From Chitinophagales bacterium (GTDB lineage Bacteria; Bacteroidota; Bacteroidia; Chitinophagales; LD1), in contig JAXLUO010000018.1 in NCBI GenBank assembly GCA_046329495.1, positions 15,045-79,044 of the forward strand: a stretch of DNA of 64,000 nucleotides. The letters are read 5' to 3'. Below are positions 39,732 through 58,805 of the stretch, piece by piece (within the stretch, counting starts at the first letter, position 1; every line of letters starts with the position of its first letter). The position numbers and the translations under genes are program-made. The notes under the pieces were generated by a model, which was given only the letters and a program-made list of their open reading frames with translations, searched no databases and was not told the origin of the DNA.

Positions 39732-39897
39732 CTCTTCTTAAAATCAACTCAGTAAAGATATTTTAAATCTCATGAACAAGAATATTGCTGCCGTCTGCGT
39801 GGGTAGAAGAAAGAGTATACCAGCAAACCATTTTGTTAATTTTAAGTACTACTATTTGAAACTTTAAACCATTTAACCTATCTTTACAGAGCAATAA

Positions 39898-39910
39898 GTT
39901 CTTTGACAAC
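39898..39910 (+). promoter_or_regulatory. boxA-like motif GTTCTTTGACAAC in the conserved 5' module
   Basis: Identical 13-mer in copy C (58716-58728, minus strand) within otherwise diverged flanks. It resembles the rrn boxA motifs GCTCTTTAACAA and GTTCTTTGAAAAC as I recall them. Confidence 0.4.
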
Positions 39911-40178
39911 CTCAGTAAAACCTAAACCACCGGCAACCCACAACTGTCGCAAGGGTAAACTATACCTGCACACCGGGCACGAAATGTTATCTTAAGTCAA
40001 GCCAATGCCGGACAAAAGATGACATCTCTGTAGACCTGCCTGCCACAAACACACAGGATAACTATGCCCTGCCGCCAAACACTTTAAAATTCCGGCAATT
40101 TGTGCACGCAAAATCAACTGCACAAATGTGCACAAATGAAAACTTCTCTAATGCGTTCCATGTTGGAACTTGCCGAAA

Positions 40179-40629
40179 GTGTAAAGAAGTGTAAAGTTTA
40201 ACCTGCATTTATCTTGAAATTCCTCTACATCCAGAACATCCTGGTTCTAAAAGTGTAAAGGAGTGTAAAGTTGCAATTGCCGTGAACAGTGAACCGAGAA
40301 CTCTTTTAATTGTAAAGAAGTGTAAAGTTTGACCTGCATTTATCCTGAAAATCCTCTAGATCCTGAACATCCTGGTCCAAAAAGTGTAAAGAAGTGTAAA
40401 GTTCTATAAACTGTATTCTTTTTCTGTCTCTGTGTTAAATCATCGATTTCGATCATTTAACACAACCTTTTTCAGGACGCTACACGGGCTGTTAATCCTG
40501 AAATCCTCTAATCCTACGAATCCTAGTTCAGACAAAATTGTAACGAAGTGTAAAGTTTAACCTGCATTTATCCTGAAAATCCTCTAGATCCTGAACATCC
40601 TGGTCCAAAAAGTGTAAAGGAGTGTAAAG
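40179..40629 (+). promoter_or_regulatory. Iteron-like array: six (G/T)TGTAA(A/C)G-N3-GTGTAAAG sites (40179, 40253, 40310, 40384, 40538, 40612). Three pairs enclose about 50 bp tracts of ATCCT phased every 9-10 bp.
   Basis: Read directly. The tract cctgcatttatcctgaaaatcctctagatcctgaacatcctggtcc recurs at about 40202, 40333 and 40561. Confidence 0.7.
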
Positions 40630-40847
40630 TTTAAACCAAAAAAATTCTTTGCGTCTTTGTGTAAACCGCTTTTTTAATCGATTTAACACAAAAATCGCTC
40701 ATATGAATTTTTCTGTAACTTGTGCACAAGCTGAAAAGTGCACAAGCATGCACAAGTAGCTGTGGATAACCCCGGACTCTTCTGGCCTCCCATCAACGTT
40801 AAAAATACACTGCAAAACAGCCAATTAAGCGCAACGCTGCATTTTCA

Positions 40848-40874
40848 CCCCCTCTTTGCGAAGCAGAGAGGGGG
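40848..40874. other. Strong GC-rich hairpin (12 bp stem, 3 nt loop) with no T-tract
   Basis: ccccctctttgc gaa gcagagaggggg, one mismatch. Confidence 0.6.
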
Positions 40875-41080
40875 CCGGGGGGTGAGTCGAGGGCAAACTG
40901 GCTATCGAGAACACACCTACGGGGAACGAGGAACAATCCTGATTCAGCATTCTAAAATCAAAAATCCGTAATGATAGGCTTGATAGGCCTTTACGTGCAA
41001 CCAATCAATCCCTATCATTCCCAATCAAAAACTATCAAACCCTATCATAACTGTAAAACAGCAAGCCATCCATCTAAAGG

Positions 41081-41400
41081 TGTAACCTTTTTCAAAAAAT
41101 AAAACAACTCCGGCATCCTTGTATTTATCTGTGTATTATGTGCAATCGGTGGTTAACTGTATTTCAACCTTTAACTACCGCGCCAATCATAAAAATCTGT
41201 GTTTCTCTGCGTTCCATTAAAAGCGTGCCCCCTAATTCAATGTAACCTTTTCAAAAAAATAAAACAACTCCGGCATCCTTGTATTTATCTGTTTTAATCC
41301 GTGCAATCTGTGGTCAATTGTATTTCAAGCATTAAATACCGCGCCAATCATAAAAACCTGCGTTCATCTGCGTTCCATTGTATTACCCACCCATTCTCTA
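41081..41400 (+). repeat. Tandem repeat, 2 x about 160 bp, in the leader of the lipid operon
   Basis: gtaacctttt at 41082 and at 41242. The units share aaaataaaacaactccggcatccttgtatttatctgt and ccgcgccaatcataaaaa.ctg.gtt..tctgcgttccatt. Confidence 0.8.
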
Positions 41401-41475
41401 TATTGACTTTTATCACCCCAAAAACCTGCCTCCATTCCCCCGCACTTTCCTATTTTAACCCCTGCAAACTATACC

Positions 41476-43128
41476 ATGCAAGTAATAGACATACACCCCG
41501 ATTGGTGGAAGTGGGGCACTGCCGAAAAACGCAAGGCCCTAACCGATTATCCGAATCTGAAAACACATCTGGAACAACGTTGGAACATCGGCTTAAACAC
41601 CCGTCGCGATGAGCCCGCCAATTTTCCGGTACTAGCCAATGCCGATAACGCAAACAAACTGGAGATACTCTTTGGTCAGTTCAACTTTACAACAAAGGCC
41701 GATACCCGCTTAATTAAAAGCCTGGGCAAAAGCTATAAGGACCTTTTGTTTTCTGTTACCCGCACGGCTGTGCGTGTGGTGGATGGTGTGGTCTATCCGC
41801 AGAATCACGAGGAAATACAGCGTATTTTAGAGATTGCTTCGCGCGAAGGCGTGCTGGTAATGCCGTTCGGCGGTGGCAGCAACGTATGCGGCGATTTCGA
41901 TTTACCGGGTGCCGATGCCCGCCCCCGACTGGCTATGGACATGGCGAAGATGAATACCCTGCTACACCTCGATAAGGTAAACCACAAGGCCACCTTTCAG
42001 GCAGGTATTTATGGTCCGGCGCTGGAGCAAATGTTGAATGCACAGGGCTTTACCCTGGGTCATTTCCCGCAATCGTTTGAATATTCAACTCTCGGCGGTT
42101 GGGTGGTAACCCGCAGTGCAGGACAGGAAAGTTCCGGTTATGGTCGTATAGAAGATATTGCCATTGCAATAAAGGTGGCCACACCCACAGGCACCCTGCA
42201 AACCAGTAGTTACGAAGGCGACGCCGCCGGGGTGAACCTGAAAGGATTATACTTTGGCAGCGAAGGCATGTTTGGCGTAGTAACGGAAGTTACGGTGCGT
42301 ATCCATCCCCTGCCTAAAACAAAACAATGGGCTATTGCCTTATTCCCTAACTACCAAAGCGGGTTGAATGCGCTGCAAAGTTTAGTGCAGCAAAACATCT
42401 TCCCTACCGTTGTGCGCTATAGCGATGAGCACGAAACATTCTTTCTATCGCTGCTTTCGCACGAAACACCGGGCTTTGTTACCAACATAAAAGCAGCAGT
42501 AAAAAGCGCGGTGCTTAAATGGAAGAAGCTGGAGCAAGGCTGCATTATGATGATACGTTTTGAAGATGATTGTGGTGAAGATTGTCCGAAGTTGGAAAAA
42601 GCAAAACGCGCCTTTAGCGATAACGGTGCTATGCTGTTAGGCGATGCACTGGGCAAACGTTGGGAAACCAGCCGCTTTGGTTTGCCCTATTTGCGCGATG
42701 ACATGATGTTGCGCAATGTAGTGGTTGATACCATGGAAACCGTAGTACCCTGGAACAAAATTGACGAGTTGCGCAAAAAACTGCGCCTGGCTTTGGATAC
42801 CTGCACAGCCTTTCAAAATCAGCAGGGCATCCTGTTGGCGCATGTATCGCACGTATATACCAGTTGCGCCAGCATTTACTTTACCGTACTTACACCTATG
42901 CAAACAGGTAACGAAATGAACCAATGGCGCGAGATAAAGAAAACCGTAACCGATACGATTGTGAACAATGGTGGAGCAGTATCGCATCACCATGGCGTTG
43001 GTAAGGACCACCAGCCCTGGTATCTGCAAACTACCGATGAAGTAACCAAGCGCATTTTGCAAAGTGTAAAACAGGCTGTTGACCCGGCCAATATTCTTAA
43101 CCCCGGCAAGTTGTTCGATGAAGCGTGA
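41476..43128 (+). CDS. FAD-linked oxidase, alkyl-DHAP synthase (AGPS)-like
   Basis: 550 aa. PCMH-type FAD-binding domain (VVYPQNHEEIQRILEIASREGVLVMPFGGGSNVCG) and a C-terminal FAD-oxidase domain (HHHGVGKDH). Confidence 0.8.
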   Translation: MQVIDIHPDWWKWGTAEKRKALTDYPNLKTHLEQRWNIGLNTRRDEPANFPVLANADNANKLEILFGQFNFTTKADTRLIKSLGKSYKDLLFSVTRTAVRVVDGVVYPQNHEEIQRILEIASREGVLVMPFGGGSNVCGDFDLPGADARPRLAMDMAKMNTLLHLDKVNHKATFQAGIYGPALEQMLNAQGFTLGHFPQSFEYSTLGGWVVTRSAGQESSGYGRIEDIAIAIKVATPTGTLQTSSYEGDAAGVNLKGLYFGSEGMFGVVTEVTVRIHPLPKTKQWAIALFPNYQSGLNALQSLVQQNIFPTVVRYSDEHETFFLSLLSHETPGFVTNIKAAVKSAVLKWKKLEQGCIMMIRFEDDCGEDCPKLEKAKRAFSDNGAMLLGDALGKRWETSRFGLPYLRDDMMLRNVVVDTMETVVPWNKIDELRKKLRLALDTCTAFQNQQGILLAHVSHVYTSCASIYFTVLTPMQTGNEMNQWREIKKTVTDTIVNNGGAVSHHHGVGKDHQPWYLQTTDEVTKRILQSVKQAVDPANILNPGKLFDEA

Positions 43129-44677
43129 AGCACAAATACAGCGTGCACAAACCAAGCACTTTGATGTTGCCATCATCGGCGGCGGCATAACCGGCGCCGG
43201 CATTTTAATGAATGCCGTGCAGCAGGGTTTAAAAGCTGTGTTGATCGAAAAGAATGACTTTGCCTCGGGCACCAGCAGCCGCTCTTCTAAAATGATACAC
43301 GGCGGGTTGCGTTATATGCAGTACATGCAGTTTGGCTTAATTAAAGAAGCCCTGCAGGAGCGCGGCCATCTGCTCAAAAAGTTTCCGCACCTGGTTAAGC
43401 CGGTTGGTTATGTGTTCCCGCATCATGGTTCTAAACTGGGTTTGTGGGTAAAGAACATAGGCTTGACTTTGTATGACACCATGGCTGCTGATGCGGAGTT
43501 CCCGAAACATGTGTTACTCAACAAAGCGCAAACGCTTAGCGAAATAAACGGCTACACTACCGATAAACTGGCCGGCTCTATTTTGTATTACGATTGCGGC
43601 ACCAACGATGCCCGCTTAACGGTAGATACCATTTCGGAATGCATACACTACGGTGCGGTAGCTATTAATTATGTAAAGGCGATAAAAGCAGAAGGCGATG
43701 ATGCAATCACCACGCTACAATGCAACGATGTGTTAAGCGGAAGCAGCTTTAGTATTCAAGCTAAAGTATACATCAACGCCACCGGTATATGGACCGATGA
43801 AACCCTGCAACAGGTTGCCGGTATACCAAGCCGGCGCATGATGCCAACTAAGGGCATACATGTAGTGGTGAGCACCGATAAGTTACCCGCTAACCGCGTG
43901 GCCATTGTAAAAGTGCCCGGCGAAAAACGGTATATCTACAACCTGCCCTGGGAAAACAACCTGAGCATATTAGGTACTACCGATACTACCTACAACGGTC
44001 GCAACGATGAGGTACTCACAACCGAAGCAGATGTGCAATACATTCTGGATGCCTTCAACCACTGCTTCCCGAATTTGAAACTTACCTATGCCGATGTAAT
44101 AAGCGTTTATGCCGGTTTGCGTCCTCTATTAAACGACGAAGGAAAGGACAACAGCAGCCGCTCGCGCGAATACGAAACCTGGTGGAGCAAAACCAACTGG
44201 CTGAATATTGCCGGTGGTAAACTCACGTCGTTTTTAAATATGGGTAAGCGTTGCCTGCAGGTGGTACATCAAAGGTTCCCCGGCATGCAGGCCGGTATTC
44301 CTGAAAAAGAAACGTGGCACGGCACAGGCAAATGGGCCAAAGAGTATGGCGAGTTTGGTTTATTGATTGAAGCCATTGAACACGAAAAACCTGAACATAC
44401 ACAACGCATTAGTGCTGTGTATAACTACACCATAGCCGAACTGTTGTTTTTTATTCGCTACCAGTTTGCACAGCAGGTAGCAGATTTACTAACCCGCCGC
44501 ACCAGTGTTACTTATGCTATGCGCAATTATGATGCTTTACTTGTAAAGCAAGTGGCGGAATTGATGGCCCGCGAATTGCAAAAAGACGCTGCCTGGATAG
44601 AGGCAGCCTGCAATAGCTACTATCAGCATTGGCAGGAGTATCATCCCGCTTTCCTTACATCAACCCCTAAATCATAA
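43121..44677 (+). CDS. glpD: FAD-dependent glycerol-3-phosphate dehydrogenase/oxidase
   Basis: FDVAIIGGGITGAG dinucleotide motif, SSRSSKMIHGGLRY, GGKLTSF. The ATG overlaps the upstream stop (ATGAAGCGTGA). Confidence 0.85.
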   Translation, partial: KREAQIQRAQTKHFDVAIIGGGITGAGILMNAVQQGLKAVLIEKNDFASGTSSRSSKMIHGGLRYMQYMQFGLIKEALQERGHLLKKFPHLVKPVGYVFPHHGSKLGLWVKNIGLTLYDTMAADAEFPKHVLLNKAQTLSEINGYTTDKLAGSILYYDCGTNDARLTVDTISECIHYGAVAINYVKAIKAEGDDAITTLQCNDVLSGSSFSIQAKVYINATGIWTDETLQQVAGIPSRRMMPTKGIHVVVSTDKLPANRVAIVKVPGEKRYIYNLPWENNLSILGTTDTTYNGRNDEVLTTEADVQYILDAFNHCFPNLKLTYADVISVYAGLRPLLNDEGKDNSSRSREYETWWSKTNWLNIAGGKLTSFLNMGKRCLQVVHQRFPGMQAGIPEKETWHGTGKWAKEYGEFGLLIEAIEHEKPEHTQRISAVYNYTIAELLFFIRYQFAQQVADLLTRRTSVTYAMRNYDALLVKQVAELMARELQKDAAWIEAACNSYYQHWQEYHPAFLTSTPKS

Positions 44678-44684
44678 TTGCCGC

Positions 44685-45596
44685 ATGAAAAAGATCGCCT
44701 TTATTATCCATGGTCGCTTAAAAACACAAGGCCGTTTACAGCAGGAAGCATTAAGCACCTTTCAACCCGATTACCAGGTTTCGTTTTTATTAACGGAGCG
44801 TAGTGGTCATGCCACGGAACTTACCATGCGTGCGGTAGAACAGGGTTGCACGCACATTATCTGTTGTGGTGGCGATGGTAGTTTAAATGAATGCGCCAAC
44901 GGCCTTATGCAATGCGGCGATAAAGCAGCCGATGTGCAGTTAGGTGTGTTACCTTACGGCACCGGTAACGACTTTATCAAAACGGTTCAATCACCAAAAA
45001 CAATGGCTGCCTTAAAACAGGCTATCGAGAAGGGTGGTAAAAAGCTGATCGACTTAGGCCATGCCTGGTATACGGGAACAGATGGTCAACCGGTTAACCG
45101 CTACTTTATTAATATAACCGACATCGGTATGGGCGGTGTGGTAGCTGAAAAGTTGAGCCGTAGCAGTAAGATGTTCGGCTCTACCGTTACTTACCAATAC
45201 TCTATTATCTCCACCTTCTTTACTTACCAAAAGCAACCCATTAAGGTGCAGGCAGATAGTTTTAAGTACGAAGGCCGTGTGATGAACTTTGTAATTGCCA
45301 ACGGTATCTGGTTCGGTAGTGGCTTAGGTGTTTCGCCCGATTCGGATGTGTGCGATGGCTTGCTGAACGTAATTGCCCTGGGCGATGTGGGCACAGCCGA
45401 CTACTTTAAAAACCTGAGCAAAGTAAAGAAGGCCGAAAAAGTAATGCACCCCGAAGTGAAATATATGACAGCCCGCGAAGTAAATGTTGAATCATCATTA
45501 GGTCCCATTAGCATTGATATGGATGGGGAGTTTGTGGGCTACTCGCCCTTAAAGGTTAAAGCAGTACACAAAGCGCTTTGGTTTATTACGGGTTAA
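44685..45596 (+). CDS. Diacylglycerol kinase-family lipid kinase (YegS/BmrU/sphingosine kinase-like)
   Basis: GGDGSLNE and LPYGTGNDF motifs of the DAGK catalytic domain. 303 aa. Confidence 0.85.
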   Translation: MKKIAFIIHGRLKTQGRLQQEALSTFQPDYQVSFLLTERSGHATELTMRAVEQGCTHIICCGGDGSLNECANGLMQCGDKAADVQLGVLPYGTGNDFIKTVQSPKTMAALKQAIEKGGKKLIDLGHAWYTGTDGQPVNRYFINITDIGMGGVVAEKLSRSSKMFGSTVTYQYSIISTFFTYQKQPIKVQADSFKYEGRVMNFVIANGIWFGSGLGVSPDSDVCDGLLNVIALGDVGTADYFKNLSKVKKAEKVMHPEVKYMTAREVNVESSLGPISIDMDGEFVGYSPLKVKAVHKALWFITG

Positions 45597-45927
45597 AAGC
45601 GCATTTTACACATAAGTATTATTTGCTATTCAACTTGCAATTGGGCATATTTTACCACATAGCGAAAGTTCGCAGTTGTTAAATATGCTATGTTTTAAAG
45701 GCCGGTGTGGAGAAAAAAGAAGGCATAACATTTGTTGCATTTTCAGCAAAAAACACGCAAAAACAAATGCTTTTGACGTCATTTTATGCTCAATTCCATT
45801 TGTGCTCATTCATATATGCAAAGTGTTTTCCACGCATATTAAAGCGCCTAAAAACGAATTTTTCGCAAAAAGGCACATCTTTGTATTCATCCATAAAACG
45901 AAGCGATTATTCACGAAAAGGTTTTGA

Positions 45928-47151
45928 ATGAGTCTATTCGATAAATGCTACAACTATAACGATGCCGACCTTACTAAGGACAAAGGCGTGTATCCTTACT
46001 TCCGCCCTATTCAGGAAAGCGAAGGCCCCACTGTAATGATGGAAGGTAGAAGGGTGGTAATGGCAGGTTCTAACAATTACCTGGGCTTAACGGCACACCC
46101 TAAAGTAAAGGAAGCAGCATTTGCGGCGCTTAAGAAATACGGCACCAGTTGTTCCGGCTCACGCTTCCTAACCGGCACTATCGATCTGCACATTAAGTTG
46201 GAAGAAAAGATAGCACGCTTTATGGGCAAGGAAGCCGCACTGTTGTTCAGTACAGGATTCCAGGCCGGCCAGGGTGTTATCTTCCCTTTAATCAGCAAAG
46301 GCGATTACATCTTAAGCGACCGCGATAATCATAGCAGCATTGTAGCAGGCAACTTATTGAGTGCTTCTATGCACGCACATGTAGTACGCTACAAGCACAA
46401 CGATATGGAGGATTTGGAGAATCGCTTATCCAAAATCCCTGCCGAAGCAAACAAACTGATTGTTACCGATGGCGTGTTCAGCGCACATGGCTTGGTAGTT
46501 AACTTAACCGATCTTACCGCACTTGCTAAAAAGTATGGCGCACAGGTATTGGTAGATGATGCACACGGCTTTGGTGTACTTGGTCCTGATGGAAAAGGTA
46601 CCGTGCATCATTTCGGCGCTGAAAATGATGTAGACCTTATTGTATGTACCTTCAGCAAAACCTTAGCTTCTTTAGGTGGTTTTGTAGTTGGCGAAGAGCG
46701 CGTTATCAATTACCTGAAACATAAATCACCGGCCTTAATATTCTCTGCATCACCTACACCTGCATCTGTTGCAGCTGCTGATGCAGCACTGGATATATTA
46801 ATAGAACAACCGGAATTAGCAACACGTGTTCGCCGCAATGCTGAACGTGTTCGTCAGGGCTTGCGCGATGTAGGCTTTTCAGTTATTGAAGGCGAAGCAG
46901 CTATCGTTCCGGTTATCATCGGCGACGATCAAAAGACTTTTGCTATCTGGAAGATGTTATATGAAGAAGGCGTGTTTGTGAATGCGTTCATTTCGCCTGC
47001 AACGCCTCCGGGCATGCAAATGCTGCGTACCAGCTATATGGCTACACACGAAGACCACCACCTCGATTTTATAGTAGATAAATTTCTAAAGGTGGGCCGG
47101 CAACTCGATTTACTGAACCGCGACATAGAAGAAGAGCGCAAAAGAGCCTGA
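45928..47151 (+). CDS. spt: Alpha-oxoamine synthase, most similar to Bacteroidota/Sphingobacterium serine palmitoyltransferase
   Basis: YPYFRPI, GSNNYLGL, GSRFLTGT, LFSTGFQ, VDDAHG, the PLP lysine in TFSKTLASLGGF, and GVFVN. This matches my recollection of Sphingobacterium SPT better than BioF or Kbl. Confidence 0.7.
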   Translation: MSLFDKCYNYNDADLTKDKGVYPYFRPIQESEGPTVMMEGRRVVMAGSNNYLGLTAHPKVKEAAFAALKKYGTSCSGSRFLTGTIDLHIKLEEKIARFMGKEAALLFSTGFQAGQGVIFPLISKGDYILSDRDNHSSIVAGNLLSASMHAHVVRYKHNDMEDLENRLSKIPAEANKLIVTDGVFSAHGLVVNLTDLTALAKKYGAQVLVDDAHGFGVLGPDGKGTVHHFGAENDVDLIVCTFSKTLASLGGFVVGEERVINYLKHKSPALIFSASPTPASVAAADAALDILIEQPELATRVRRNAERVRQGLRDVGFSVIEGEAAIVPVIIGDDQKTFAIWKMLYEEGVFVNAFISPATPPGMQMLRTSYMATHEDHHLDFIVDKFLKVGRQLDLLNRDIEEERKRA

Positions 47152-49921: not shown

Positions 49922-49926
49922 AGGGT

Positions 49927-50971: not shown

Positions 50972-52183
50972 TTAAGCAAGGTTGGCAAACGCCGCTTTCA
51001 TGCGCTTGCAGGCTTCAGTAAGTTTTTGTTCGCTGGTAGCATAGCTAATGCGCAGGCAGTTCTTATCGCCAAACGCCTCGCCGCTTACTACACCTATCTT
51101 GGCTTCGCTCAGTAAATACAGCGATATGTCTTCCGGTGTGTTCATCACCTTATCGTTAAACTTTTTACCAAAGTAAGCGCTTACATCAAAGAAGAAGTAA
51201 AACGCACCATCAGGCAAGTTCACTTTCAAGCCTGGGATTTCCTTCAATAAACCATAAACCAAATCGCGGCGTTTGCGGAACTCTTCTACCATCTTCATCG
51301 AAGGTTCTACACTACCCAATAAGGCTGCTTCACCGGCCTTTTGTGCAATAGAACAAGTGCCGGAAGTAAACTGACCCTGCATTTTATCGCATGCCTTGGC
51401 AATAGCCAATGGTGCGCCAATGTATCCTAAACGCCAACCGGTCATAGCAAATCCCTTGCTAAAACCGTTCACGGTTATTACCTGTTCTTTAATATCTGCA
51501 AACGATGCCAGGCTGGTATGCTTTTTACCGGTAAAGTTGATGTACTCGTAAATTTCATCACATAACACAAATACATTCGGGTGGCGCTTTAACATAGCCG
51601 CCAAGGCTGCCAGTTCTTCATACTCATATACTGAACCTGTAGGATTGCAGGGTGAAGAGAAGATGATAAGCTTGGTTTTAGGTGTAATATGTTTCTCTAA
51701 TTCTGTAGCACTAACTTTAAAGTTAGTTTCAATTCCTGCAGCAACCTCTATGCATTTAGCCTCTGCCAATTCAGCGATAGCTGCATAGCTAACCCAATAA
51801 GGGGCAGGCAGTAACACTTCATCACCTGGGTTTATTAAACTCAACACCACATTAGCGATACTTTGCTTAGCACCTGTGCTTACTACTATTTGATCAACGG
51901 TATAATCCAGTCCGTTATCGCGCTTAAACTTTTCAGCAATTGCCTTGCGCAGTTCAGGGTAACCCGGTACCGGGGTGTATTTAGTGTAACCTTTATCGAT
52001 GGCATCTTTGGCAGCATCTTTAATATGCTGTGGGGTATCAAAATCAGGTTCGCCTAAGCTAAGGTCGATAACATCGTGGCCTTGTGCCTTTAATTCGCGG
52101 CTAAGTTTCGCCATTTTAATAGTGGCGCTTTCCTGCATGTTGTTAATACGTTCCGAAAGATAGTTTGCCATTGCCTGGGTCAT
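50972..52183 (-). CDS. Class I/II PLP-dependent (aspartate) aminotransferase
   Basis: LSLGEPDF, SSPCNPTG, and the PLP lysine in NGFSKGFAMTGWRLGY. The start is set at MTQAM. Confidence 0.85.
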   Translation of the reverse strand: MTQAMANYLSERINNMQESATIKMAKLSRELKAQGHDVIDLSLGEPDFDTPQHIKDAAKDAIDKGYTKYTPVPGYPELRKAIAEKFKRDNGLDYTVDQIVVSTGAKQSIANVVLSLINPGDEVLLPAPYWVSYAAIAELAEAKCIEVAAGIETNFKVSATELEKHITPKTKLIIFSSPCNPTGSVYEYEELAALAAMLKRHPNVFVLCDEIYEYINFTGKKHTSLASFADIKEQVITVNGFSKGFAMTGWRLGYIGAPLAIAKACDKMQGQFTSGTCSIAQKAGEAALLGSVEPSMKMVEEFRKRRDLVYGLLKEIPGLKVNLPDGAFYFFFDVSAYFGKKFNDKVMNTPEDISLYLLSEAKIGVVSGEAFGDKNCLRISYATSEQKLTEACKRMKAAFANLA

Positions 52184-52384
52184 GCTTGTTTTTTGTGCGT
52201 TTACGGCAATTTTGCCGCCGCCGCGAAAATACAACACAGCGAACATTTTACCCCTGTTTTTGCAAAAAGTAATGCACTATATGTGGATGCTTCTTCCTGC
52301 TACTGCCAGCGGGCTACTAAGGGATGCCTGCTAAAGCAAAACGCCCCTTTGCAGGAGCGTTTGCTAATATGCTCCATCTTAAGT

Positions 52385-54175
52385 TTAGTCGTTCAGTTTA
52401 AGTACGGCGATAAAGGCCTGTTGGGGCACCTCAACCTTACCAAACTGGCGCATCTTCTTTTTACCCTTCTTCTGCTTCTCCAACAGCTTACGTTTACGGC
52501 TGATATCACCACCATAACACTTGGCTGTAACGTCCTTACGGATAGCAGATATGTTTTCGCGGGCGATGATCTTGGCGCCGATGGCTGCCTGAATAGGAAT
52601 CATAAACTGCTGGCGCGGAATCAATTCCTTCAGCTTTTCGCACATCTTACGGCCAAAATCTTCGGCCTTGGTACGGTGAATCATCGAACTGAAGGCATCC
52701 ACTACTTCGCTGTTTAACATAATGTCCAGCTTCACTAAGTCGCCGGCACGGTAATCAACCGGGTGGTAATCGAAAGAGGCGTAACCGCGGCTGATAGACT
52801 TTAAGCGGTCGTAGAAGTCGAATACAATCTCGGCCAGCGGCATCTCGAACATTAACTCTACACGGTCTTCGGTGAGGTAGTTCTGATTTAACAGGATACC
52901 GCGCTTTTCCATACACAAGGTCATAATAGAACCGATGTACTCCGGCTTGGTAATCACCTGGGCACGGATATATGGTTCTTCCAAGTGGTCGATACGCGAT
53001 ACATCCGGCATATCGGCCGGGTTGTGGATGGTAATTTCATCACCATTGGTAAGGTAAGCCTGGTAGCTAACCTGTGGAACGGTGGTAATAATGGTCATAT
53101 CGTATTCGCGTTCCAAACGTTCCTGCACAATTTCCAGGTGCAATAAACCAAGGAAGCCGCAACGGAAACCAAAGCCCAGCGCTATCGAAGTTTCGGGTTC
53201 ATATACCAAGGAGGCATCATTCAACTGCAACTTCTCCAAAGAGTCGCGCAGATCCTCGTAATCATCGTTATCCATTGGGTAGATACCGGCAAATACCATT
53301 GGCTTCACATCTTCGAAACCATGGATGGCTTCTTTACAAGGATTGGCCTGAGTAGTAATGGTATCACCCACTTTAATCTCTTTGGCATTCTTAATGCCGG
53401 TAATGATATAACCTACGTCGCCGGTTTTTACCTCACTACGTGGTTCCAGATCCAGGCGCAGGATACCCACTTCATCGGCCAGGTAGTTTGCGCCTGTGTT
53501 AACGAACTTAACTTTGTCGTTCTTTTTCAGGCTACCATCCAGAATACGGAAGTAGGCGATTACACCGCGGAAAGGGTTAAAAACCGAGTCGAAAATCAAA
53601 GCACGTAAAGGCGCATTCGGATCGCCTTTAGGGGCCGGTAACTTATCGATGATAGCATCAAATATCTTATCTACACCCAAGCCGGTGCGGCCAGAGGCAA
53701 AGATGATCTCCTCGCGCTTACAACCTACCAACTGCACCATCTGGTCTGCTACCAACTCGGGGTTGGCGCCGTCCATATCAATTTTGTTCACCACCGGTAT
53801 AATGGTAAGGCCCTGGTCCAGCGCCAGGTACAGGTTACTGATGGTTTGTGCCTGAATACCCTGGGCAGCATCTACCAGCAACAAGGCGCCTTCGCAGGCG
53901 GCCAGTGAACGCGATACTTCGTAACTGAAGTCAACGTGGCCGGGGGTATCAATCAGGTTCAATACATATTTCTTGCCATCGCGGATAAAGTCCATCTGTA
54001 TGGCGTGACTTTTAATAGTAATGCCGCGTTCGCGTTCCAGGTCCATGTTATCCAACACGGTATCCATCATAGCGCGCTCGCTGATGGTTTTGGTGGTTTC
54101 GATAAGGCGGTCGGCCAGGGTGCTTTTACCGTGGTCGATGTGAGCGATAATGCAGAAGTTGCGGATATTTTCCAT
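52385..54175 (-). CDS. lepA: Translation elongation factor 4 (LepA)
   Basis: [32 protein letters not shown], and a LepA-specific C-terminal domain. 596 aa. Confidence 0.97.
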
Positions 54176-54393
54176 TGGGCGGCGAAGATAAGAAGTATGG
54201 TGGAATGCGATAATAACGGCGCTTTAACATTTTACGGCCTTTTACAAGCTATTTTAATGGACCCAAAACCAGGAAGCCACTCTGATTTTGAGCACTTTAC
54301 AAACCTTACGGCGATCTACCTGCCATCTGAGCCTCCTCACTTTAAAATATAGCCGAAAACGGCATATTTACACCGCAGGGCCACGCCGCCCTG

Positions 54394-54954
54394 GTGAAAG
54401 CGCCCATGGAGCAAGCAACTAACCAACCTACACGCAACAACTGGTATGTAATAACCGGCGGACCCGGCTCGGGTAAAACCACCTGTATTGATATGCTGCG
54501 TACCATGGGTTACAGGACTACCGAAGAGCCTGCCCGGCATTATATGGACATCCAGCGCCACAACGGTAACTCGCTTGAAGTGCTGCGCGCCCACCAGCGC
54601 GATTTTCAACTGGCCATTTTAAAGATGCAGTTGGAGCAGGAACAAAGCCTGAACCCTGCTGAACTCACCTTCCTGGACCGTGGCATACCCGATTCGCATG
54701 CTTACTACCATTTTCTTCAAATACCTGAGGACCCTCAATTGGTTGAAGCACTAAAACATATCTCCTACAAAAAGGTGTTCATTATGGACTGTTTACCGCT
54801 GGTTAACGATTATGCCCGTATTGAAGACGAAGCAGCTCAATTAAAAATCCACCAGTTACTTATTGAAATCTACGAAGCCCTTCCTTTTCCTATTGTTCGC
54901 GTTCCGGTTATGAGTGTGGAGGAAAGGGTTGGATTTATATTAAGAAACCTTTGA
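54394..54954 (+). CDS. P-loop ATPase (AAA_28/NadR-C-like)
   Basis: Walker A ITGGPGSGKTT, 186 aa. GTG start, with an alternative ATG at 54406. Confidence 0.65.
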   Translation: MKAPMEQATNQPTRNNWYVITGGPGSGKTTCIDMLRTMGYRTTEEPARHYMDIQRHNGNSLEVLRAHQRDFQLAILKMQLEQEQSLNPAELTFLDRGIPDSHAYYHFLQIPEDPQLVEALKHISYKKVFIMDCLPLVNDYARIEDEAAQLKIHQLLIEIYEALPFPIVRVPVMSVEERVGFILRNL

Positions 54955-55029
54955 TAGTTAGGAGTTGTGAGTGATGAGTTTTGCGTGATGCTTTCATTCA
55001 ACTATTTTATTGCTATCTATTATTACATT

Positions 55030-55458
55030 CTACCTTCTTAACTGCTCATAAGCGTTCCTCATAGATTCTTTTATCCTCTTTGTCAGCTCCAACTCATCCA
55101 ACGCAGGCTGATTTGCTTCAAACAAAGCTATTAACGCAGCTTTATGTTCAGGATGACTTAACCAATATCCTGACTCAATTTGCAGCAGGGTATTAAGCAA
55201 GTCGCCTTCATAAAAATCTCCTGACACAAAAGGGTTGGCTTTTAAAAATTCCAGTACGCGCGGCACAAGAATTTCCAAGGCTATATTTTGACCGAGCAGT
55301 AGCCGGTAATCTTCTGCTGTAAATGCTGATAACTCCTTCTTTCTAAGCAGATGACATTGCTGTACCAGGTACGATGCTCTTCTATCGGGTTCGCCCCATA
55401 TCGCCTGCTCTAACAATTCAATTGTGTCGTTCATAAGATCGCATCTCAATACAACCAA
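55030..55458 (-). CDS. Possible CdiI-type (contact-dependent inhibition) immunity-like protein
   Basis: All-helical, 142 aa. The pattern ED.RLLLGQNI.LE.L.P..L..L..NP...G.FYEGDLL..LL resembles the CdiI_2 immunity family as I recall it. An alternative start is at 55434. Confidence 0.45.
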   Translation of the reverse strand: MVVLRCDLMNDTIELLEQAIWGEPDRRASYLVQQCHLLRKKELSAFTAEDYRLLLGQNIALEILVPRVLEFLKANPFVSGDFYEGDLLNTLLQIESGYWLSHPEHKAALIALFEANQPALDELELTKRIKESMRNAYEQLRR

Positions 55459-56192
55459 ATACTATCCCCAGTTTCATTAGCCAATACAATAGTATCTCCA
55501 AGCCAATACCGCCATAATTCAGGTTCCACCTTATTCTTCCTATACATTGCTAGTAAATCTACCGTATCCTCTGCCATTAAAAAATCCGTTACTACGTCAT
55601 AAGCATCATAAACTGGTAACCCGATTAGTTTGCCATCCGGAGAAAATCTAACCATTCTATCCTGTTTTTGACTTTTATTGGTGTGAAAATGGTAGTTCCC
55701 ACCAAACAAAAATCCGTTTGTGAAGCGATGTGTTGCCACGCCAACCGAAGAACGAGTAAGGGTATCCCACCTTAAATAGGAACAGAAAACTTTCTTTTTG
55801 TTCCGTAAGAATAAGGTATCCTTTTCTATGCTTACCAAAACTGAGGTGTCTCCGTCAAACAAATCTGAATAGCCAGAAACCTTCAACACAAACGGATACG
55901 AACTCGCATCGATTGATAACCAATCTCCTTCGTGGTTGCCCAAGGAAATGTATACCGCTACAGTATCATTTTCCAGGTTAAATTGTAATTCCGAAAATCC
56001 TCTTAGCTGTTTATGACTTAAAAGAGGAGATTTCGTGCTTCGAAGAGTGTCTATATAGCTAAGCTTAAGCCAGGCACCATTCAGGTCTTTCGCTTTGATA
56101 GTTGATGGCGCAGTTCCTGTCTTGTGATTACAGCCCATAATCAACACAGCTAGAAAACAAAAACTTATCCTTGTTATATTACTACTTCTCAT
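55446..56192 (-). CDS. Hypothetical lipoprotein
   Basis: Signal plus lipobox (LIMGC). 248 aa. Overlaps both neighbouring genes by 11-13 nt. Confidence 0.55.
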   Translation of the reverse strand: MRSSNITRISFCFLAVLIMGCNHKTGTAPSTIKAKDLNGAWLKLSYIDTLRSTKSPLLSHKQLRGFSELQFNLENDTVAVYISLGNHEGDWLSIDASSYPFVLKVSGYSDLFDGDTSVLVSIEKDTLFLRNKKKVFCSYLRWDTLTRSSVGVATHRFTNGFLFGGNYHFHTNKSQKQDRMVRFSPDGKLIGLPVYDAYDVVTDFLMAEDTVDLLAMYRKNKVEPELWRYWLGDTIVLANETGDSIWLY

Positions 56193-56550
56193 ATTTCAAG
56201 CCCAAATATCCTTCTATAAAACCCGAATACTCATAAACCTGAATGGTGTATAGAAATTTAACATAAAGCACGAACAAAACTGAACCACCCAACAACCATA
56301 ATTCAGGATGTTGCACCTCCATAAACCTGGTTGACACTCCATTTAAATTAAGCATTATAGCCAATATCAAATAAAAGAGCGGTAAACCGTACAACACCAA
56401 TTTTAGCTTATCGCTAATCGTATAAGTTATATGCACCTTTGATTGCGAGGCATTTTCAACCGTGCCTTTCAATACTATTTTAAGCTGTCCCCTAGGACTT
56501 GGTTTTGGAGCTATTTCAAATGAATCGGACCTAACCTTTCCAACAAACAT
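56182..56550 (-). CDS. Hypothetical membrane protein
   Basis: 122 aa with two transmembrane segments in the C-terminal half. Confidence 0.45.
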   Translation of the reverse strand: MFVGKVRSDSFEIAPKPSPRGQLKIVLKGTVENASQSKVHITYTISDKLKLVLYGLPLFYLILAIMLNLNGVSTRFMEVQHPELWLLGGSVLFVLYVKFLYTIQVYEYSGFIEGYLGLKYEK

Positions 56551-56677
56551 TGTCTCCTTCTGTTATGTTCAATAAATGGCGCAGCGCCTCTTCGATTTCA
56601 CTCGGACTAATTACACTGGAATAGCTTATTGATTTTTCGAAAAGAGAGACCCTCATACAAATTCCTACCACGATTTT

Positions 56678-57118
56678 TTATATAAATAGTGTGTCGTTAT
56701 TTTTAATTGCATCCTGCAAATCCACGCCCTGTAAATTACAGCTTTCAAAAACTGCATGTTGCAAAAGTGCGCCCCTTAGCACAGCATCTGATAGCTCACA
56801 TTTTGAAAACCGGCTATACGCTAAAAACGCATTTGCAAAATAGGTACTACTCAGATTACAATTAATAAATTGTGTCTCTTTAAGAAACGCACAAGCGAAC
56901 GAGGTATTCACTAAAATACAGTTTTGAAACACTGCGCCATTTAGCTTACTGTAAGCAAAAGTTGCCCCGGTTATACTGCAATCTTTAAAAATAATTCCTT
57001 CCAGATTATCCCCTTCGAACAGGATACGATGTAGATTACGATTACTTATAACAGCCCCTTTAAAGCTGGTTAGCTTGAAGGCATATTCATCTTCTGCATT
57101 TGATGGCACCCTTATCAT
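56678..57118 (-). CDS. Pentapeptide-repeat protein
   Basis: Continuous A(D/N)LxF-type pentads (GATFAYSKLNGAVFQNCILVNTSFACAFLKETQFINCNLSSTYFANAFL). Confidence 0.8.
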   Translation of the reverse strand: MIRVPSNAEDEYAFKLTSFKGAVISNRNLHRILFEGDNLEGIIFKDCSITGATFAYSKLNGAVFQNCILVNTSFACAFLKETQFINCNLSSTYFANAFLAYSRFSKCELSDAVLRGALLQHAVFESCNLQGVDLQDAIKNNDTLFI

Positions 57119-57495
57119 CGCGCATATTTTGTTTTCTTCGTTCCGATACTTTTATGCTGCCGTATCCATAGGCTGTTATCTCGAAAATTCACCAGTTTAG
57201 TACCAAAAAGGCCAAATTTTGCATTCTCTATATAAGCAAAAGTATAAGCATCTACGGTAGTATCCTGCAGATTTGTGTAGATCGTATCCCGCTTTTGTCT
57301 CCACTGTATTTTCGCTTCTCCCTTTCCCAAAAGGTGTATACTAAATTTAAACTCGCCTTCGCCATTTGGTTTGAACACCAGCTTTCTCGAAAATCCTTCT
57401 ATGCCATAGTTATAAATGCCAGGCCGTAACTGCTTACATGCCGAAAGAAATAGCATCATTAGAAGTAGAATATATATACCCCGATAATCCATCAC
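57115..57495 (-). CDS. Hypothetical lipoprotein
   Basis: Signal plus lipobox (FLSAC). 126 aa. ATGA start/stop overlap with the pentapeptide gene. Confidence 0.5.
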   Translation of the reverse strand: MMDYRGIYILLLMMLFLSACKQLRPGIYNYGIEGFSRKLVFKPNGEGEFKFSIHLLGKGEAKIQWRQKRDTIYTNLQDTTVDAYTFAYIENAKFGLFGTKLVNFRDNSLWIRQHKSIGTKKTKYAR

Positions 57496-57593
57496 CGAAA
57501 TGTAAGGAATTCATGAATGCCAATATCTCAGTTGTTATTCGACGCCCAGATTATAGCTGCAGTAAGCATTTGAACAAAACAAACACCGTACTA

Positions 57594-58082
57594 CTAACAA
57601 TTAATTCTCAGTGAAATGTGTTTATTAATCTCTTCAATCAAATAGTTTATTAGTTTAGGATACGTCCCTGCACCTACATAACTCTGCGGTGCTTTAAAAT
57701 CAAAGTCGCTGCGCAAGCGTTCTAAACTGACGGGTTCAATTTCGGTGTATTGCTTTATAGGAATGGCATAACCCTGTTTTTGATCTTTTAGGTATTCATA
57801 TACTGTTTCGCCATTGCCCGGTATCAGGCTTTCAGCTAAGTCCCCTATTCGTTTAGGTGTATCAATAATTGGTTCGCCCATCAGCATAAAGCCCCGTATT
57901 TGCTTAACCGGGCTTGACACATAAATTACCCCTACTGTTGGCCTTTTGCGAAACCGGCGACGGTACTCCATCTTTTTGGTTCCGGATCGGATGAGATCGT
58001 ATGCATAGGGTTGCAGACTTAGGATAATTATATCCGCTGCGGTATAGTCCGATTCTGTTTGGCCAAAGAGGTTGGGCTGCAT
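57594..58082 (-). CDS. ASCH (PUA-like) domain protein
   Basis: ILSLQPYAYDLIRSGTKKMEYRRRF ... VGVIYVSSPVKQIRGF ... GYAIPI is the typical ASCH pattern. Confidence 0.6.
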   Translation of the reverse strand: MQPNLFGQTESDYTAADIIILSLQPYAYDLIRSGTKKMEYRRRFRKRPTVGVIYVSSPVKQIRGFMLMGEPIIDTPKRIGDLAESLIPGNGETVYEYLKDQKQGYAIPIKQYTEIEPVSLERLRSDFDFKAPQSYVGAGTYPKLINYLIEEINKHISLRINC

Positions 58083-58192
58083 ACAATAAATATAGAAGCA
58101 GTTTCAGCATTTTGGAAACGGACCGTAGAAAGCAAGGATTAAAGACGTTTGTTGTTAGAGGCCTGTTGTTTGTCGTTTTGATTTGTGAGGGG

Positions 58193-58805
58193 TTATCAAC
58201 ACTGCTTGTGCATGCTTGTGCAAGTTTTTGCTTGTGCACAAGTTACAGAATTTTTCATGTGATGATTTTTTGTGTTAAAATGGCCGAAAATCAGTGATTT
58301 CACACAAAGGCGCGAAGAATACAGTTTATCGAACTTTACACTCCTTTACACTTTTCTGAAAACAGAGATTAGAAATCAGAGATCAGAAATCAGACAACGT
58401 GGCGCTTTGCGCTGATGCAACTTTACACTCCTTTACACTTTTTGGACCAGGATGTTTAGGATGGATCAAAGGAGAGGGCGGAAAATTGGCCGTAAAGGAA
58501 CGCATTATTAAAATTTTCATTTGTGCACATTTGTACAGTTGATTTTGCGTGCACAAATTGCCGGAATTTTAAAGTGTTTGGCGGCGGGGCATAGTTATCC
58601 TCTGTGCTTTGCGGCAATTTGGTCTACAGAGATGTCATCTTTGCCCGGCAGAGGCTTGACTAAAGATAACATCTCGTGCCACTGTTAGGTTGCCGGTGGT
58701 TTAGTGTTTCCCAGGGTTGTCAAAGAACTTATTACGTTGTAAAGATAGCGTATAGGGTTTAAAGTTTCAAATATAGATACTATAAATTAACAAAATAGTT
58801 TGATG
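58193..58805 (-). repeat. Copy C (about 610 bp, inverted) of the multi-copy noncoding element
   Basis: Its reverse complement aligns block by block with 39822-40770. It includes an approximately 85 nt block with 2 mismatches (ggataactatgccc..aatgtgcacaaatgaaaa). It has two GTGTAAAG-N3-GTGTAAAG sites (58335-58352, 58421-58438), the palindrome at 58231-58242, and TTATCAACA at 58193-58201. Confidence 0.9.

Follow-up and report, generated by a model that had tools for sequence, protein, structure and literature searches.

Dispersed modular noncoding loci form a lineage-restricted repeat family in an uncultured Chitinophagales bacterium

Background

The 64,000-nucleotide stretch of DNA analysed here (the window) comes from an uncultured Chitinophagales bacterium and contains three copies of a noncoding sequence, two of which lie in opposite orientation around a gene-bearing segment. 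The locus raises the questions of what kind of element the repeated sequence is, and whether the opposed pair is connected with rearrangement of the DNA around it.

Results

Members of the family

Copies A (1 to about 250, plus strand, cut by the window edge), B (39822–40770, plus strand) and C (58137–58805, minus strand) are true members of one modular noncoding repeat family. No other part of the 64 kb contains the modules common to them. As the first-pass annotation had proposed, B and C can be aligned block by block, and A matches the 3' module of B at 91% over 100 nt (about 93 percent in the earlier estimate). The near-identical block of about 85 nt was recovered as an 86-nt block (40058–40143) with 2 mismatches to C. 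Conservation is indeed concentrated in short blocks, and overall B and C differ by about 31% across 649 nt, the differences being spread throughout. GTTCTTTGAnAAC occurs in B and C only, and all five occurrences of TGCACAAnnnTGCACAA in the window, against 0.11 expected, are inside copies. Both edges are sharp (5', ...ATTTTGTTAA; 3', ...GATAAC).

The description as a noncoding, multi-copy element of no known family also holds: neither B nor C fully contains an ORF of 60 aa or more, and no match was found in Rfam or among IS, plasmid and phage records and viral contigs. Neither inverted ends nor target-site duplications were seen at B or C, and the scanned ORFs adjoining the copies include no transposase or integrase, as previously stated. 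Several details were revised. The B/C indel in the 5' module measures about 30 nt rather than 22 nt. Copy A does not end at 104, since a further repeat unit (a doublet at 157–176, then a T-rich tract) reaches about 250, and copy C does not stop at 58193 but extends about 55 nt more, to about 58137, by a CA-rich tail (58137–58192, minus strand) that is common to copy L005 of a sister Chitinophagales MAG.

Among other genomes, that MAG alone was found to carry the family, with five copies (pattern matches). The family, previously undescribed, is restricted to this lineage: it is present in two sister species and, in addition, in one further strain, and absent from more distant relatives at the loci compared. 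Genes shared between the window genome and the MAG are about 80% identical at the DNA level. Some copies occupy non-orthologous loci in the two genomes, and copy B is missing from the corresponding MAG site. Several further families of small repeats are present in the genome.

The copies are not assembly artefacts, because independent assemblies hold the same joins of flank and element for all three: assembly L135 has the 5' part of B beside the same flank, L141 starts inside A with 100% identity, and the ortholog of C in the MAG adjoins sdhB. In strain L135 the variable genes beside B are replaced by a different ORF.

Modular structure

The family consists of dispersed, lineage-specific modular noncoding loci of 0.38–1 kb each. 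A full copy has five parts, M1 to M5, whose orientation is fixed across the family. The first reading had overlooked the hairpin, the promoter- and BoxA-like sites at the start, the DnaA-box-like end and the fact that the two TGCAC modules are paralogous.

M1 holds a match to the Bacteroidota-type (-33/-7) promoter, TTTG-N20-TATCTTTA, followed 12 nt on by GTTCTTTGACAAC (39855–39886 and 39898–39910 on the plus strand in B; 58740–58771 and 58716–58728 on the minus strand in C). The pattern TTTG-N19-21-TAnnTTT[GA] has three matches in the 64 kb against 1.66 expected; two are M1 of B and C, and the third is directly upstream of a TetR/RND operon. MAG copy L002 has the full promoter consensus, TATCTTTG, while the -7 box of most copies ends in A and not G, which counts against the transcription proposed below, and MAG copy L006 has no M1 match. 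Where the gene upstream has a visible intrinsic terminator, the full copy begins just past it; before M1 of L002, L004 and L130 the terminator is canonical. Within the second motif, GTTCTTTGACA agrees with the BoxA consensus GYTCTTTAANA (PMC5725501) at 10 of 11 positions. This sequence is confined to M1, always 12 nt from the -7 box; it is a single 11-nt match with an estimated chance of about 1–2% per 300-nt leader, in a module that is conserved anyway. At one position it carries G in place of the A of the gammaproteobacterial consensus, and G is usual at this position in the rrn BoxA of Gram-positive bacteria.

M2 is a variable leader with a conserved hairpin of 14–17 bp (39981–40028 on the plus strand in B, with a 14-bp outer stem and an apical stem; 58629–58675 on the minus strand in C). 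In an alignment of only four sequences, 92% of the cells are paired, against 37–52% with the partner slid. Two pairs are altered on both sides, and the opposite strand would have A.C in place of the conserved U.G and G.U pairs; the long hairpin is thus kept through compensatory changes and G.U pairs specific to the sense strand. C exceeds G on the sense strand in eight of nine copies, on either chromosome strand. The folding z-scores, however, are alike on both strands (-2.1 to -3.3), which counts against the transcription proposed below.

Both M3 and M5, which are paralogous, have TGCAC(AA) sites at three positions (0, +16/17 and +26/27), and their profiles detect each other with E values of 1e-5 to 1e-7. 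M3 of B (40097–40138, plus strand) reads AATTTGTGCAC-N-CTGCACAAAT-GTGCACAAAT, with sites at 40103, 40119 and 40129; that of C (58518–58560, minus strand) has TGTACAAAT as its middle site, and M3 is absent from L003/L130. M5 ends in the DnaA-box-like TGTGGATAAC. In A the module is cut by the window edge (1–104, plus strand; nhmmer E value 2e-29), with TGCACAA sites at 57, 73 and 83 and TGTGGATAA at 95–103. In B (40632–40770, plus strand) it comprises the TTTAACAC hairpin region, TAACTTGTGCACAAGC-N7-TGCACAAGCATGCACAAG at 40720–40756 and TGTGGATAA at 40761–40769, and in C (58193–58331, minus strand) it has TGCACAA sites at 58238, 58222 and 58212 and ends in TGTTGATAA, one mismatch from the DnaA box. 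The core ACTTGTGCACAAGC...TGCACAAGCATGCACAAG is invariant in eight copies from two genomes, which, at about 80% DNA identity of shared genes, points to selection or strong concerted evolution. Within each module the unpaired middle site has the same variant as the paired sites, a pattern better explained by protein recognition or local homogenisation than by RNA pairing.

M4 consists of zero to six units of a pyrimidine tract, an A-run and GTGTAAAGnAGTGTAAAGTT, which sit between or after the two TGCAC modules. The order first proposed (5' module, array, 3' module) is therefore not general, as other copies have arrays after the 3' module or no arrays. The window has nine occurrences of GTGTAAAGnAGTGTAAAGTT (0.00 expected), each of them within or next to one of the three copies and in the orientation of that copy. 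GTGTAAAGnAGTGTAAAGTT is a doublet, an 8-bp direct repeat with an 11-bp period (GTGTAAAG); doublets and TGCAC sites are all co-oriented with M1. The array of B (40177–40631, plus strand) has six doublets (40179, 40253, 40310, 40384, 40538 and 40612) and three 96-nt units that are 91–100% alike and carry ATCCTGnnn tracts; within the array is also a partial M5 start, with a hairpin (40431–40464) that is perfect. That of C (58332–58462, minus strand) has doublets at 58419–58438 and 58332–58351, with one pyrimidine tract of the ATCCT type and one of the TCTGATT type. The trailing unit of A (105–250, plus strand) holds a C/T-rich tract, the doublet GTGTAAAGCAGTGTAAAGTT, a short GC hairpin, a T-rich TCTGATT-type tract and an A-run.

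Inversion between copies B and C

Relative to the sister MAG, in which the order is sdhB, element, FAD-oxidase operon, the segment 41346–54950 (13.6 kb, from the FAD-oxidase/ether-lipid operon through lepA and the AAA_28 gene) is inverted. The first-pass annotation was thus right in seeing a noncoding multi-copy element associated with an inversion, but its account of the extent, the exchange site and the gene content needs revision. The inversion does not take in all of the 17.4 kb between B and C, and the remaining 3.8 kb is made up of about 0.6 kb of noncoding DNA by B and 3.2 kb of low-GC genes by C, both window-specific. Both copies lie in window-specific DNA at the two junctions, whereas the MAG has one element only, at one junction. 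The left junction DNA (38656–41345) holds copy B, two ORFs (129 aa and 92 aa) and some 570 nt of other noncoding sequence, with a GC content of 38.9% against about 46% elsewhere. At the right junction is a window-specific small-gene island (54951–58188, GC 39.2%), co-directional with C, which encodes a PDC-M11B-like protein, a pentapeptide protein and a CdiI_3 immunity protein. The enclosed genes, taken earlier for housekeeping genes, hence include a CdiI-type immunity gene, and also a candidate defence gene.

The 3' module of C is 89% identical to the MAG element and that of B 77%, which identifies the former as the ortholog. The breakpoint by C accordingly lies 3' of the last module, at or beyond the element edge and outside the shared blocks, rather than within the 85-nt block where exchange had been supposed. 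Both the breakpoint and the foreign island adjoin the 3' edge of M5 of C.

Discussion

Comparison with known systems

In being dispersed, intergenic and built of conserved outer and variable tandem inner modules, the family resembles pneumococcal BOX elements (boxA, n boxB, boxC), enterobacterial BIMEs and NIMEs, which likewise differ in length between loci or strains, are predicted to fold if transcribed, and can influence neighbouring genes (PMC3049150). There is, however, no sequence similarity, and the present loci are of 0.38–1 kb against 67–637 bp, of low copy number, and without visible terminal inverted repeats or target duplications; they have their own promoter match and BoxA-like site, two paralogous triple-site modules, and arrays that can sit outside both outer modules.

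The arrangement of a promoter and, behind it, a GYTCTTTAANA-like sequence where a long untranslated transcript begins, here a predicted one, is shared with BoxA/Nus antitermination leaders (rRNA operon leaders, the suhB 5' UTR), in which BoxA protects a transcript on which Rho would otherwise act (PMC5725501). NusB/NusE binding is in the present case a prediction, and unlike in those systems no rRNA, tRNA, CRISPR repeat or cas gene is near the copies. The leaders of CRISPR arrays are further examples of such antitermination. Another multi-copy noncoding family of Bacteroidota is the paralogous sRNA family FopS, with 14 copies in B. thetaiotaomicron, canonical sigma-A-type promoters and a link to an RNA-binding protein (PMC11697453). 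The present family shares the promoter type, as a match, but has no sequence or Rfam relation to such sRNAs, is several times longer, modular and array-bearing, has no defined 3' end or terminator that could be found, and its transcription is predicted.

Alternative explanations

The inverted pair and the inversion might be unreal, the product of collapsed or mis-joined repeats. Short-read contigs of other samples do stop inside elements (L135 in M3, L141 in M5 of A), and the joins of B to the FAD-oxidase operon and of C to the island are seen only in the window's own assembly. This is nevertheless highly improbable, as, besides the confirmed flank joins and the divergence of B from C throughout, a B/C swap at the shared block predicts that the 3' module on the FAD-oxidase side is closest to the MAG ortholog, and it is C, on the sdhB side, that is closest. 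Also improbable, if less so, is a site of DNA transactions, that is, an iteron-type origin or partition site, a DnaA titration site, or a landing pad cut at its 3' edge by a recombinase encoded elsewhere. Such a site would account for the breakpoint and island at the edge of C, for the variable genes beside B, and for the three iteron-like repeats beside a perfect DnaA box (TTATCCACA) in five of eight copies, a likeness to iteron origins and parC-type centromeres with their direct repeats phased at 10–11 bp. But each copy has only one box, degenerate in C, L130 and L004, and a chromosome has several copies; the scanned neighbouring ORFs include no rep, par or recombinase gene, the window has no GC-skew switch, plasmid and phage homology is lacking, and the TGCAC sites are direct and not inverted like transposon ends.

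Two further explanations carry more weight, though each is unlikely. The less probable is a regulatory platform at the DNA level, with a strong promoter and clustered operators, including direct repeats phased at 10–11 bp (OmpR/PhoB-type) and the palindromic TTGTGCACAA, controlling neighbouring genes. The doublet period, the last two TGCACAAG sites 10 bp apart, the palindromic TTGTGCACAAG and the shared variant in all three sites of a module agree with it, as do the co-directional genes that follow A, B, C, L002 and L130. Yet up to six doublets and 0.4–1 kb of conserved sequence exceed by far what an operator region normally has, the genes after three of the five MAG copies are convergent (GNAT, carB, ABC ATPase), the neighbouring genes have no common function, and neither the C>G skew nor the occurrence of G.U pairs on the sense strand alone is explained. 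Somewhat more probable is a selfish or neutral mosaic repeat, spread by recombination or a trans-acting transposase, whose promoter- and BoxA-like parts are incidental or locally exploited. Its variable inner and conserved outer modules are those of BOX elements (PMC3049150), and it would fit the sharp ends, the narrow lineage, the variable presence, the non-orthologous positions in the two genomes and the company of other small repeat families; the invariant core motifs, the low copy number, the lack of terminal inverted repeats and target duplications at B and C, and the lack of transposase or integrase genes among the scanned adjoining ORFs argue against it.

Proposed function

The explanation that we tentatively prefer to these is that the loci are dispersed, self-promoted, Rho-protected noncoding transcription units with protein-binding repeats. 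Transcription, with its start and its end, is here predicted from the sequence. RNA polymerase would start at M1, and NusB/NusE, binding to the nascent RNA at the BoxA-like sequence, would render the transcription complex resistant to Rho, which without such protection would terminate the untranslated, C-rich and G-poor transcript. The transcript would cross the repeats and enter the next gene where this is co-directional. The predicted targets are the lipoprotein/SNF2 genes downstream of A, the FAD-oxidase operon downstream of both B and the MAG ortholog, and the small-gene island that follows C. Points against this explanation are the lack of M1 in L006 and of M3 in L003/L130, and the convergent genes after three of the five MAG copies; no terminator is visible before carB, so that read-through there would be antisense. 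The invariant TGCACAAG and GTGTAAAG repeats may be recognition sites, on DNA or RNA, for a trans-acting protein, for which no candidate was identified. Array length would change by slippage or unequal exchange, and the copies, as dispersed repeats, would mark sites of rearrangement and gene gain.

Copies of the repeat in the window

Reading and alignment of the three regions bear out the block-wise similarity that the first-pass annotation reported for copy A (1 to ~250, plus strand, cut by the window edge), copy B (39822–40770, plus strand), and copy C (58137–58805, minus strand). In a BLASTN search of B against the window, A was 91% identical over 100 nt (5–104), and C was matched in two stretches, at 68.7% over 649 nt (58805–58270) and at 68.9% over 280 nt (58462–58189). 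The counts of motifs shared by the copies are far beyond chance: GTGTAAAGnAGTGTAAAGTT (≤ 2 mismatches) has nine matches in the window against 0.00 expected, TGCACAAnnnTGCACAA five against 0.11, and GTTCTTTGAnAAC two against 0.30. Each of these matches falls within one of the three copies or immediately next to it, in the orientation of that copy.

The copies are noncoding, as had been stated, with no ORF of at least 60 aa within B or C. Their boundaries are wider than had been described: A does not end at 104 but runs on with another repeat unit, and C does not end at 58193 but has a further 55-nt tail. The indel between the 5' parts of B and C is present, its size being ~30 nt and not 22 nt. 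The observation of a three-copy element is thus confirmed, while the interpretation attached to it is partly supported.

Modular organization

A modular plan was derived from the motif maps of nine copies, all of them intergenic, and from alignments. Loci L002, L004, L005, L006, and L130 are copies in a Chitinophagales MAG, and L135 is a contig of a further strain with the ortholog of B. M1 is TTTG-N20-TATCTTTA(C), followed 12 nt later by GTTCTTTGACAAC. The consensus of Bacteroidota housekeeping promoters is TTTG at -33 and TAnnTTTG at -7, and the first part of M1 fits this pattern. When relaxed at the last base, the pattern has three sites in the window (1.66 in shuffles), namely M1 of B, M1 of C, and a site immediately upstream of a TetR/RND operon. 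Within M1, GTTCTTTGACA agrees at 10 of 11 positions with the BoxA consensus GYTCTTTAANA derived in PMC5725501. It stands 12 nt after the -7 box in six of the seven M1-bearing copies, and the seventh (L002) has GTTCTTTGAAAGC. On the BoxA sequence of Bacteroidota and on the element motifs, nothing usable was found in the literature.

M2, ~200 nt long, is a leader that varies. Its B, C, L135, and L005 versions contain a 14-bp stem topped by an apical one; 92% of the cells of this hairpin are paired, as against 37–52% with the 3' partner slid. In two pairs both bases have changed, and the conserved U.G and G.U pairs would be A.C mismatches on the opposite strand.

M3 has the layout AATTTGTGCAC - 11 nt - CTGCACAAAT-GTGCACAAAT, and M5 consists of the TTTAACAC hairpin region, then TAACTTGTGCACAAGC-N7-TGCACAAGCATGCACAAG, then (T/C)AGnTGTGGATAAC. 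The two modules are paralogs: their nhmmer profiles detect each other (E 1e-5 to 1e-7) and their TGCAC sites lie at the same positions, 0, +16/17, and +26/27. Across eight copies, whose two source genomes differ by ~20% in genes, the core of M5 does not vary. Five of the eight have a perfect DnaA box in the 3' part of M5 (reading TTATCCACA on the opposite strand), and in C, L130, and L004 the box is degenerate.

M4 is an array of 0 to 6 units between or after the conserved M1–M3 and M5. Each unit is a 35–55-nt pyrimidine-rich tract with a periodicity of 7 or 9 nt (TCTGATT or ATCCTGnnn), an A-run, and a doublet, i.e. a direct repeat with an 11-bp period. B has six doublets, including three 96-nt units that are 91–100% alike, and C has two. 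In L002 and L004 of the MAG, M3 and M5 are almost adjacent, the minimal element being ~385 nt, and arrays, where present, come after M5; the order of modules is therefore not fixed. The sense strand has C in excess of G in eight of the nine copies, irrespective of the chromosome strand.

Three further readings of the modules were rejected. A small conserved peptide in M5 (MK(I/N)SVTCAQ...) has no ATG in A, and an extra 10-nt repeat in L005 shifts its frame. A second Bacteroidota-type promoter inside M5 would have, on reading by eye, no TTTG at the right distance and a poor -7 match. Folding energy does not serve as a strand indicator, because both strands fold better than shuffles.

Distribution of the family

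The Rfam scan that had been proposed gave 0 matches at gathering thresholds over the whole window; hits in 39600–41500 (E up to 10) are at chance level, with 16–23 bits against cut-offs of 44–60. No tRNAs were found in the window, and neither 72,556 plasmids nor 50,697 phage records gave a match in BLASTN run in distant mode.

The M5 triple-site pattern, searched in GTDB with each species represented by one genome, was found in five places, all in a single MAG, JBGAIB01, a Chitinophagales genome from a membrane bioreactor. Genes shared with the window are ~80% identical in DNA, the FAD-oxidase being 92% and LepA 95% identical; the MAG is a sister species of the window's organism. The ortholog of B is found in a third strain (Logan SRR13823730), with 94–96% DNA identity to the window. 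In distant Chitinophagales with a 55–60% identical FAD-oxidase, the region upstream of that gene is short and ordinary; others, with LepA 94–95% identical, have a different synteny. The module profiles gave no match in ~120 kb of distant Chitinophagales DNA. Within the data reached, the family is confined to one narrow lineage. This limit is provisional, because the metagenome pattern with variable gaps, TGCACAAGN{1,12}TGCACAAGN{1,12}TGCACAAG, was too loose: unrelated tandem repeats are among the matches listed, and none of the loci among them has the real element layout.

In viral sequences, neither the strict M5 pattern nor the strict M3 pattern had a hit. Two-site seeds gave hits at about the chance level by a rough estimate, and these have no extended homology to the profiles. 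The doublet matches three phage contigs that are AT-rich, have another repeat period, and are otherwise dissimilar; it is treated as a coincidence or a weak lead. In two AT-rich IMG/VR phage contigs (L127, 10660–10920; L129, 6240–5990), clusters of GTGTAAAG direct repeats with inverted CTTTACAC copies precede a -7 box of Bacteroidota type (TATCTTTG) and a AGTTCTTTAAATAAC that resembles BoxA; a helicase-like gene lies downstream. Their layout of promoter then BoxA is that of M1, and the repeat match may be a coincidence.

Look-ups with window proteins for the rest of copy A returned nothing, or 1.3 kb contigs starting inside A. Position 1 of L135 lies in M3 of the B ortholog, and position 1 of L141, a contig from a public run, lies in M5 of A (window 75). 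Contigs assembled from the short reads of independent public runs thus break off inside the elements, which indicates that the family fragments the assemblies of this lineage.

Inversion between copies B and C

The order in the MAG is sdhCAB, an element, and the FAD-oxidase/G3P-dehydrogenase/DAG-kinase operon, on to lepA and an AAA_28 gene, which abuts a 334-aa gene found in the window at 37522–38571. When the MAG loci are aligned to the window by BLASTN, 29609–38655 is collinear with the MAG, 41346–54950 is reversed, and 58189–64000 is collinear again. Two stretches are absent from the MAG: 38656–41345 (GC 38.9%), with two small ORFs, copy B, and ~570 nt, and 54951–58188 (GC 39.2%, vs ~46% elsewhere), with six small co-directional genes. 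The MAG has a single element at these junctions, the other junction being a 326-nt intergenic region without any module.

The M5 of this MAG element (L130) is 89% identical to that of C vs 77% to that of B, and the TGTTGATAAC variant is common to C and the MAG element; C is its ortholog. The inversion is real; a mis-join at the shared block would predict the opposite pattern of similarity. Homology between the MAG and the window picks up again only in the 130–240 nt directly upstream of the FAD-oxidase gene. From this and the orthology of C, the breakpoint next to C is placed at or beyond the 3' edge of M5, and not within the 86-nt near-identical block of B and C. Of the earlier interpretation, the inversion, with B and C at its ends, holds, and a breakpoint within the shared block does not hold next to C. 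Two scenarios would account for the arrangement: a block with B and the island was inserted and an exchange near the element edges followed, or the inversion came first and insertions at both junctions later.

Other repeats and genes near the copies

Several smaller repeats were observed. At 41081–41379, just upstream of the FAD-oxidase gene, a ~160-nt unit containing AATCATAAAAA(T/C)CTG..CTGCGTTCCATT is tandemly duplicated (copies 87–96% alike); the MAG has a single copy at the same place, and a related stretch lies ~70 nt upstream of the B ortholog in L135. Another small repeat, made up of a GC-rich hairpin and then TGGGTAACTAAGGAA, has just two copies in the window (39330–39374, plus strand; 58859–58935, minus strand), upstream of and co-oriented with the elements, ~480 nt before the M1 promoter site of B and ~55 nt before C. 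It looks like a separate small insertion, because it is absent from the MAG ortholog of C. In L130 (9290–9410), a palindrome-rich insert of ~110 nt at the 5' edge of the element, between repeated CTATTTTGTT, looks like a small MITE-type insertion with target duplication. A GC-rich palindrome, CCCCCTCT...AGAGGGGG, followed by GG(G/T)GTGAG, is next to or inside three element copies (window 40846–40885; L004 ~5770–5840; L005 ~960–1005) and may be a further small repeat family.

The low-GC island at 54951–58188 encodes a CdiI_3 immunity protein (55030–55458), a pentapeptide-repeat protein (56678–57118), and a PDC-M11B-like candidate defence protein (57594–58082); its other three ORFs have no family. 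A further strain (L001) has the left part of the island, with 96.8% identity. A gene for a 136-aa protein of the PD-(D/E)XK nuclease family (PDDEXK_3, E 6e-43; 59992–60402, minus strand) lies between sdhA and sdhB. It is an insertion in the succinate dehydrogenase operon, since sdhA and sdhB are 45 nt apart in the sister MAG. The gene for a 616-aa TPR and adenylate/guanylate cyclase protein (35049–37158), also in the MAG, is missing in L135 despite an otherwise 94–96% identity, so that it has been deleted there. Downstream of A (847–7400) are genes for a DUF6252-like lipoprotein, a 973-aa SNF2-family helicase, and a full-length LigD with phosphoesterase, ligase, and primase-polymerase domains. 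The helicase has strong hits to the models for DpdE and ZorD; these may reflect no more than a general resemblance among SNF2 proteins.

Nature and possible function of the elements

The elements are, on firm grounds, a family of dispersed noncoding repeats that is modular and lineage-specific and whose short motifs are under strong constraint. They do not have the ends or flanks of an IS or MITE: the two termini (5' ...ATTTTGTTAAT, 3' ...TGTGGATAAC) are not complementary, a repeat search in B gave internal hairpins only, and no direct repeat is common to both flanks of B or C. Among the neighbouring ORFs scanned there is no transposase or integrase. As to target duplication, B sits inside a larger window-specific block, so that there is no clean pair of filled and empty sites. 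A CRISPR array was rejected, the 'spacers' being themselves repeated (the three 96-nt units) and low-complexity pyrimidine tracts, with no cas in the scanned ORFs. An integron was rejected as well, with no integrase in the scanned ORFs and with the island genes after C overlapping or abutting without repeats between them. Multicopy sRNA families with canonical promoters occur in Bacteroidota, such as FopS (PMC11697453), which is short and unrelated. The element is best classed as a modular interspersed repeat, unusual in its built-in promoter, its BoxA-like start, and its duplicated triple-site modules.

An autonomous transcription unit, with the phased repeats as protein recognition sites on DNA or RNA, is tentatively preferred. 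Upstream genes end in canonical terminators before M1 (L002, L004, L130), a near-match to the BoxA consensus is found in the 5' part of the predicted transcript, as in BoxA/Nus leaders, and all repeats are co-oriented with M1. The predicted RNA would start from the M1 promoter and carry a BoxA-like site for NusB/NusE right at its beginning. Being untranslated, C-rich, and G-poor, it would be an ideal Rho substrate, which would explain the need for BoxA. The hairpin is retained with its sense-strand-specific wobble pairs. The phased repeats (three TGCACAAG, and GTGTAAAGnAGTGTAAAG) look like protein recognition sites, which would act either on DNA, with an OmpR/PhoB-like geometry, or on RNA, as a sponge. 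Among known systems, the predicted working is closest to that of a leader with BoxA at its head, coupled to a modular repeat of BOX type. Against a transcription unit, the -7 box is imperfect, BoxA is called from one match of 11 nt, convergent genes face three of the MAG copies, some copies are without M1 or M3, and folding energy does not separate the strands.

That the elements are selfish mosaic repeats like BOX or BIME is somewhat unlikely. Like BOX-type repeats, they have conserved outer modules, a variable number of tandem inner units, and an intergenic location. The pneumococcal BOX is modular, with outer modules that pair in a TIR-like manner and with target-site duplications (PMC3049150); the elements share this architecture only, and not its sequence or terminal pairing, their M1 and M5 being non-complementary, without target duplications or any relationship to boxA/B/C. 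An operator platform acting on DNA only is unlikely. A site of replication, partition, or recombination is very unlikely: five of eight copies have three iteron-like TGCACAAG repeats and one TTATCCACA box, but there are several copies, the scanned neighbours include no rep gene, and the window has no GC-skew switch. The mosaic repeat, the operator platform, and the replication, partition, or recombination site overlap with the preferred transcription unit and are not exclusive of it. For want of a GC-skew switch, the idea that the inward-pointing pair brackets a replication terminus or a fork trap was rejected. An assembly artefact is highly improbable given the pattern of similarity at the inversion.

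A more elaborate proposal, which is quite unlikely, is that the copies are a novel class of multi-copy, Nus-protected long noncoding RNA genes that sponge an RNA-binding protein via the pyrimidine tracts and the GUGUAAAG/UGCACAAG repeats, or that the 3' edge is a recombination landing pad placing acquired genes behind a promoter and antiterminator, or both. CsrA is, to our knowledge, lacking in the phylum Bacteroidota. With a landing pad, newly acquired foreign genes would be shielded from Rho silencing.

Whatever its function, the family is of practical use as a marker. Assemblies from short reads break at its copies, which are found at both ends of a 13.6 kb inversion and beside strain-specific gene islands, and it therefore bears on the quality of MAGs and on the plasticity of the genomes of activated-sludge Chitinophagales. 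Noncoding RNA and the control of transcription elongation are poorly known in Bacteroidota. If the proposed function is true, the family would represent a portable cassette of promoter, antiterminator, and binding-site array in this phylum, and would offer a system for asking how untranslated transcripts evade Rho, what recognises repeats phased at 10–11 bp, and whether such cassettes activate newly acquired genes.
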